Shown here: positions 17,010 through 18,137 of the stretch, one piece after another | How the letters are laid out: each line of letters starts with the position of its first letter | Numbering within the stretch: the first letter of the stretch is position 1 | DNA from: Escherichia coli | GTDB lineage: Bacteria > Pseudomonadota > Gammaproteobacteria > Enterobacterales > Enterobacteriaceae | Strand: one strand, 5' to 3' | DNA: 64,000 nucleotides | Assembly: GCF_041248615.1 (NCBI RefSeq) | Contig: NZ_CP158426.1 | Notes under the pieces: model-generated | What the model saw: only the letters and a program-made list of their open reading frames with translations | Database searches by the model: none | What the model was told of the DNA's origin: nothing | Program-made: the position numbers and the translations under genes

Positions 17010-18137
17010 ATGAAAGTTAAAGTACTGTCCCTCCTGGTCCCAGCTCTGCTGGTAGCAGGCGCAGCAAACGCTGCTGAAGTTTACAACAAAGACGGCAACA
17101 AATTAGATCTGTACGGTAAAGTAGACGGCCTGCACTATTTCTCTGACGACAAGTCTGTAGATGGCGACCAGACCTACATGCGTCTTGGCTTCAAAGGTGA
17201 AACTCAGGTTACTGACCAGCTGACCGGTTACGGCCAGTGGGAATATCAGATCCAGGGCAACAGCGCTGAAAACGAAAACAACTCCTGGACTCGTGTGGCA
17301 TTCGCAGGTCTGAAATTCCAGGATGTAGGTTCTTTCGACTACGGTCGTAACTACGGCGTTGTTTACGACGTAACTTCCTGGACCGACGTACTGCCAGAAT
17401 TCGGTGGCGACACTTACGGTTCTGACAACTTCATGCAGCAGCGTGGTAACGGCTTCGCGACCTACCGTAACACTGACTTCTTCGGTCTGGTTGACGGCCT
17501 GAACTTTGCTGTTCAGTACCAGGGTAAAAACGGTAGCGTAGATGGCGAAGGCATGACCAACAACGGTCGTGGTGCTCTGCGTCAGAACGGCGACGGCGTT
17601 GGCGGTTCTATCACTTATGATTACGAAGGCTTCGGTATCGGTGCTGCAGTTTCCAGCTCCAAACGTACTGATGATCAAAATGGTAGCTACATCAGCAATG
17701 GTGTAGCTCGTAACTACATCGGTACTGGCGACCGTGCTGAAACCTACACTGGTGGTCTGAAATACGACGCTAACAACATCTACCTGGCTGCTCAGTACAC
17801 CCAGACCTACAACGCAACTCGCGTAGGTTCCCTGGGTTGGGCGAACAAAGCACAGAACTTCGAAGCTGTTGCTCAGTACCAGTTCGACTTCGGTCTGCGT
17901 CCGTCTGTAGCCTACCTGCAGTCTAAAGGTAAAAACCTGGGTGTCATCAATGGTCGTAACTACGACGACGAAGATATCCTGAAATATGTTGATGTTGGTG
18001 CGACCTACTACTTCAACAAAAACATGTCCACCTACGTTGACTACAAAATCAACCTGCTGGACGACAACCGCTTCACCCGTGACGCTGGCATCAACACTGA
18101 TGACATCGTAGCTCTGGGTCTGGTTTACCAGTTCTAA
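17010..18137 (+). CDS. ompC: Outer membrane porin OmpC (375-aa allele)
   Basis: N-terminus [44 protein letters not shown] and C-terminal VALGLVYQF; strong codon bias. Confidence 0.97.

Follow-up and report, generated by a model that had tools for sequence, protein, structure and literature searches.

How did the chromosomal ompC of this Escherichia coli strain come to encode a porin of 375 amino acids (aa), with surface loops unlike those of the 367-aa K-12 protein, and what may the difference mean for the cell? The gene lies in a stretch of DNA of 64,000 nucleotides (the window). The two protein lengths, which the initial annotation had given, were confirmed from the list of open reading frames and from the MG1655 gene. 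Based on the results below, we suggest that this is an intact ompC with already catalogued loops, that it is a mosaic made by recombination, and that it would present an altered surface epitope. We put the probability of this explanation as a whole at roughly 0.9.

The window is colinear with, and 100% identical to, the chromosome of E. coli isolate NRZ14408 (NZ_LT599825.1, from position 1763672 on), so that the earlier assignment to a non-K-12 strain holds. The gene is annotated as ompC both in NZ_LT599825.1 and in NZ_CP028192.1, and the gene order rcsD-micF-ompC-apbE-ada-alkB-yojI is that of K-12. The following features define the locus:

16583-16676, minus strand: micF antisense sRNA gene, upstream of ompC and divergent from it (match to Rfam RF00033 with 116.8 bits; gathering score 79)
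17010-18137, plus strand: ompC coding sequence from the list of open reading frames, 375 aa and a stop codon, RefSeq WP_001590387.1
17010-17072, plus strand: signal peptide, aa 1-21, the same as in K-12; mature chains in the PDB begin at query residue 22
18156-18183, plus strand: intrinsic terminator-like hairpin of ompC, AAAGGGCCTGCGGGCCCTTT followed by a T run
18249-19304, plus strand: apbE (ftp), intact, on a diverged tract described below
19378-20442, plus strand: ada, containing the right end of the diverged tract at about 20121

One more terminator-like hairpin was found at micF (16611-16589). The ompC reading frame is intact, and its product ends in VYQF. In comparison with family models, the protein scored 759.9 bits with NCBIfam NF007841 'porin OmpC' (cut-off 484), whereas the OmpF model (475.1 bits, cut-off 583) and the PhoE model (450.7 bits, cut-off 599) remained below their thresholds. 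The OmpC model led OmpF by 285 bits and PhoE by 309 bits, and its cut-off was the sole one passed. Pfam PF00267 (Porin_1) was matched with 470 bits. Solved OmpC structures could be aligned with the protein over the full length (9wcb, 736.5 bits; 2xe1, 705 bits; K-12 2j1n, 691 bits; E <= 1e-207), and from these alignments a 16-stranded beta-barrel fold is very likely.

A search with the ompC query by megablast gave a median of two and up to four matches per E. coli genome, i.e., sites besides ompC, and one could ask whether the reading frame is a mislabelled paralogous porin (ompN, nmpC, ompF or phoE) or a product of gene conversion. The canonical locus, from micF/rcsD to apbE, together with the family scores, among which only the OmpC cut-off was passed, excludes this. 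Furthermore, the three parental haplotypes discussed below are all ompC alleles from the same locus, and the probability that is left to a paralogue is negligible. As judged from sequence, the gene is the chromosomal ompC of a non-K-12 E. coli, and its product is a general-diffusion porin of full length that is presumably functional.

Elsewhere in the window, yejA (53910-55724, minus strand) contains an in-frame stop at about codon 499 of 604 (…RVWRAMP, stop, PSSD…), and the annotation of NZ_LT599825.1 lists it as a pseudogene. Since YejABEF imports microcin C and peptides, the stop may inactivate uptake by this system. An IS1B-family element (38760-39457) lies directly upstream of the autotransporter gene yejO (39467-41698), which is 5'-truncated and annotated as partial, without its N-terminus.

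To describe the differences from K-12, OmpC of MG1655 (NC_000913.3, b2215, NP_416719.1; structure 2J1N), with 367 aa, was used as a reference. The pairwise alignment contained 18 substitutions and three indels (minus 4 aa in L4, plus 8 aa in L5 and plus 4 aa in L7), with an identity of 95% over aligned positions. More precisely, GFTS is absent from L4, YISNGVAR is added in L5 and GVIN is added in L7. The initial annotation had placed the divergence in external loops. On the structure-based loop and strand map of Beck et al. 2016 (S1 Fig), which was read from the figure by machine and has approximate block edges, 14 of the 18 substitutions and all three indels are located in extracellular loops (loops versus non-loops, Fisher p = 1.3e-4). 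Two substitutions fall in L1, five and the deletion in L4, five and the insertion in L5, one and the insertion in L7, and one in L8. The other four substitutions are the only changes in the barrel strands: G->A and I->V affect b10, L->V affects b14, and N->D affects the residue with which the last strand begins. The signal peptide, L2, L3 and L6 are those of K-12, as are residues 50-175 with L2 and the entire L3 constriction loop. The loops concerned are as follows:

17142-17162, plus strand: L1, SDDKSVD, two substitutions from SDNKDVD of K-12
17352-17429, plus strand: L3, which forms the constriction and carries the PEFGG motif, without any difference from K-12
17526-17582, plus strand: L4 (19 aa), class c7, 4 aa shorter than in K-12, with GFTS gone and five substitutions
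17664-17732, plus strand: L5 (23 aa), class b5, 8 aa longer than in K-12, with the YISNGVAR insert at 17688-17711
17934-17972, plus strand: L7 (13 aa), class e, 4 aa longer than in K-12 (GVIN), with G->N; the same as L7 of the O157:H7 type
18054-18104, plus strand: L8 plus the residue that opens the last strand, with Q->R at aa 354 and N->D at aa 365

The L8 sequence is shared with Escherichia sp. E1V33 and with OmpC of the 6104H type. All the stretches quoted earlier as divergent were found in the protein, at aa 175-192 (17532-17585), aa 215-242 (17652-17735) and aa 309-323 (17934-17978). The interval 17520-17960, to which the divergence had been assigned, does span L4 to L7 and takes in the variable part only; it ends, however, 18 nt before the end of the third stretch.

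An AlphaFold2 model, built with a 55-sequence alignment of OmpC orthologs, had a mean pLDDT of 61.2, with values below 50 in L4 and L5 and poor modelling of both termini. It served as a rough check of strand positions only and is silent on the conformation of the 8-aa insertion in L5. In this model of mean pLDDT 61.2, DSSP recovered most strands, and the changed segments lay in the gaps between them.

The allele is already known: it is a natural, catalogued OmpC variant and not a new one, and ompC is well known for polymorphism of this type in its loops. The exact protein, WP_001590387.1, was found on 827 contigs of publicly available assemblies, and 22 of the 5,426 complete E. coli genomes contain the exact 1128-nt allele. 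Among these 22 carriers, 19 are swine isolates from pig or wild boar, ETEC and O139:H1 strains included, 2 are human isolates, and 1 is NRZ14408. According to Beck et al. 2016 (PLoS Pathog 12:e1005925, PMC5056734), 2,707 E. coli OmpC proteins fall into over 220 variants, which draw on 33 L4, 30 L5 and 13 L7 types, the loops being modular and occurring in many combinations. Exact string matches to three loops of our protein were found in S2 Table of that work: L4 c7 (representative KTE205), L5 b5 (B088) and L7 e (EC869). The accession WP_001590387.1 was not found in the supplementary text of Beck et al., where the matches are per loop and not for the c7/b5/e combination. The 121-nt L5 form is present at an identity of at least 98% in several hundred complete genomes, a figure estimated from an evenly spaced listing and not counted. 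These data also bear on the possibility that the length differences are errors of sequencing or assembly, for which the repetitive-looking, Gly/Asn-rich loop sequence around the indels might be taken as a reason. Such an error is practically excluded: the indels are multiples of three and leave the frame intact, and the 22 complete genomes with the same DNA were assembled independently, and the same protein is encoded on the 827 contigs.

The difference profile along the locus points to the origin of these loops. In rcsD, in micF and over the initial 420 nt of ompC, the DNA differs from that of K-12 by about 1%; the divergence rises to 10-20% in 17436-18023, remains at 7-8% through apbE into ada up to about 20121, and then returns to 1-2%. 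Divergence confined to the loops would not have predicted such a profile. Informative sites were compared in five sequences, and a 'parent' here means the matching haplotype among them, so the window may itself be a parent or a product. From 17010 to 17843, the window matched the allele of 2012C-4221 and NY1601 (WP_064225515.1) at 168 of 168 variable sites. In 17906-18830 and 18831-19150, it matched strains 1190, ST2747, O166:H15 JNE070796 and GPEC856 (WP_000865595.1) at 89/89 and 30/30 sites, respectively, and in 19151-20121, it matched CUVET16-394 at all 89 sites. Not a single site unique to the window was found across 17010-20328 in the informative-site table with the three other natural haplotypes. 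The two resulting features are:

17844-17905, plus strand: intragenic recombination breakpoint interval, aa 279-299 (b13, periplasmic turn, b14), with no variable sites inside
17906-20121, plus strand: diverged haplotype tract comprising the 3' end of ompC, apbE and the 5' 70% of ada, recognised from difference profiles, identity bands and dS

Since the matching parent switches between long runs and no window-unique sites are left, the ompC allele is, by this comparison, an intragenic recombinant with its breakpoint in 17844-17905. This interval is conserved sequence between hypervariable loops. WP_064225515.1 is identical to the window over 17010-17905 and differs from it at 9 sites 3' of 17905. 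In contrast, WP_000865595.1 (368 aa) is identical between 17844 and about 19150, and 64 alignment positions 5' of 17844, in L1, L2, L4 and L5, distinguish it from the window. Together, the two alleles explain every variable site of ompC. This process was described by Chen et al. (bioRxiv 10.1101/2021.09.21.461324), in whose work the ompC hypervariable regions L1, L2, L4, L5 and L7 are recombined into about 15 groups. The mosaic process is the same, but it is treated there at the protein level, and the work does not appear to describe a tract extending into apbE/ada.

We suggest the following scheme for the assembly of the allele. Homologous recombination, and not point mutation in the lineage, would have joined a 5' three-quarters (through L6) from an allele of the 2012C-4221/NY1601 type to a 3' piece of the 1190/ST2747 type. 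The 3' piece is the start of a haplotype of about 2.3 kb, which reaches ada and is as far from ordinary E. coli as another Escherichia species would be. The resulting gene combines a K-12-like barrel, L3 and micF/promoter with a different catalogued natural set of loops L1, L4, L5, L7 and L8.

Alternatively, the loops could have changed by point mutations and small indels under positive selection within the lineage, giving a newly evolved allele. Nonsynonymous change is indeed enriched in the loops, where dN relative to K-12 is 0.20 for L4, L5 and L7 together and 0.007 in the barrel, and ompC has been reported as positively selected in work cited in bioRxiv 10.1101/2021.09.21.461324. However, dS in the same three loops is 0.54, and dN/dS is 0.37, i.e., not above 1, which fits old exchanged cassettes and not recent mutation. 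New mutation would also have to be reconciled with the lack of window-unique sites in 17010-20328 and with the long unbroken runs in which three haplotypes match, and each loop string had already been catalogued from unrelated isolates. We consider selection of new mutations in this lineage very unlikely and retain recombination between existing alleles as the origin of the loop set.

The recombinant nature of the gene also affects its use in typing. Both rcsD and micF, which flank the gene, are K-12-like to about 99%, and the allele itself is a recombinant patchwork common to unrelated strains; because of this, ompC is, on the comparisons made here, a poor lineage marker.

The tract that begins in the 3' end of ompC is about 2.3 kb long. 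Its identity with the 1190-type sequence starts at 17844, and the first site unlike ordinary E. coli is 17906. It differs by about 7% from the sequence of some 95% of the complete E. coli genomes and consists of two overlapping blocks with a strictly bimodal distribution. For 18140-18830, an identity of at least 99% was found in 52 genomes and of 90-95% in 5,367; for 18840-20120, the corresponding numbers were 249 and 5,144. Both blocks occur together in only 22 genomes, which are the carriers of the exact ompC allele. In apbE and in the 5' part of ada, the synonymous divergence (dS) relative to K-12 reaches 0.35 and 0.33, respectively, compared with 0.025-0.054 in the 3' end of ada, in rcsD and in the 5' end of ompC; among ordinary E. 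coli, dS of apbE is 0.06-0.13. At the same time, dN of apbE relative to K-12 is 0.004, and therefore the genes are still under purifying selection. The depth of the tract is comparable to the dS of 0.30-0.46 between K-12 and representatives of other Escherichia species.

A donor of the tract was not found when the GTDB species representatives were scanned with ApbE: among the 80 loci listed, which do not include E. fergusonii, E. marmotae and E. ruysiae, none exceeded 95.1% apbE DNA identity. The closest of the listed representatives was Escherichia sp. E1V33 (apbE identity 95.1%, dS 0.22), and the 3' end of its ompC is 98.7% identical to the window. We tentatively propose, as one possibility that we hold to be less likely than not, that the tract (about 17844-20121) entered by introgression from a non-coli Escherichia lineage not yet sampled, or else represents a haplotype of great age maintained within E. 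coli, and that its linkage to the surface-loop end of ompC is the reason why it persists and spreads as overlapping pieces. If this is true, the neighbourhood of ompC would form a small 'bastion of polymorphism' that extends from one species to another, comparable to the regions flanking the O-antigen locus. In the species representative E. whittamii Sa2BVA5, apbE is E. coli-like (dS 0.06 to K-12), and the adjoining rcsD is about 10% diverged. This contrast suggests cross-species exchange in the ompC neighbourhood.

The regulatory region between micF and ompC (16600-17009) has only two differences from K-12, at 16828 and 16829. It should be noted that this region contrasts with the heavy divergence within and downstream of ompC. 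Along with the K-12 state of L3 and of residues 50-175, these two differences are relevant to a clinical explanation of the allele, namely that the porin was changed by selection for lower uptake of antibiotics, e.g., carbapenems, in a multidrug-resistant isolate. NRZ14408, the isolate matching the window, appears in publications on mcr-mediated colistin resistance, and the PDB matches include a clinical series of OmpC mutants with altered transport (2xe2, 2xe3, 2xe5, 2xg6). Nevertheless, the reading frame is intact, the constriction loop and the micF-ompC region are as described, and 19 pig-associated strains share exactly this allele, which is therefore older than NRZ14408. Selection for resistance is thus highly unlikely. 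Because L3 and residues 50-175 are those of K-12, altered pore properties are not expected, and the pore would be expected to behave as in K-12.

In the recombination scheme, the consequences would thus be sought at the cell surface: the altered epitope would shift recognition by OmpC-dependent phages, by CdiA and bacteriocins and by antibodies, probably with no change of the pore. The best-scoring solved structure, 9wcb chain A (736.5 bits; 346 aa mature), is an OmpC of the O157:H7 type with the loop set of isolate EC869. It shares with our protein the short L4 backbone, L7 and L1. In contrast, its L5 is short (…DDQNSPLYIGNGD) and lacks the 8-aa insertion of the 375-aa protein. About ten substitutions also separate the two, among them D178 and G188 in L4, V300, R354 and D365 of the 375-aa protein. 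Thus, the allele pairs an O157-like L7 with a non-O157 L5.

Several recognition systems depend on these loops. Recognition by CdiA-EC536 is decided by L4 and L5 of OmpC (PMC5056734). Adsorption of phage T4 was lost, according to preliminary data, on substitution of a Phe in L4, and the O157 OmpC is unusable by T4 (PMC5221442). The sole Phe in L4 of K-12, F182, lies within the GFTS that is missing here, and the 375-aa protein thus lacks the L4 Phe reported to be needed by T4. We predict the loss of K-12-type, OmpC-dependent T4 adsorption because this Phe is among the four missing residues. For phage PP01, gp38 contacts the O157 OmpC at Ser225/Pro226 of L5 and at the GVIN motif of L7 (PMC12892980). 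In the protein studied, GVIN is present in L7, and L5 has the long b5 form without SPL; whether it would be recognised in the PP01 manner is uncertain from these residues.

For the population genetics of the species, the diverged apbE-ada haplotype is a modest curiosity, which illustrates that housekeeping neighbours can be carried across lineages by selection on a surface protein. In practical terms, the allele would help to predict which OmpC-dependent phages, CDI toxins and bacteriocins target pig ETEC, O139:H1 and NRZ14408-like strains, and it could be of use in selecting therapeutic phages against porcine E. coli. The finding matters little beyond routine strain typing, and it provides a clean example of ompC alleles as recombinant patchworks.
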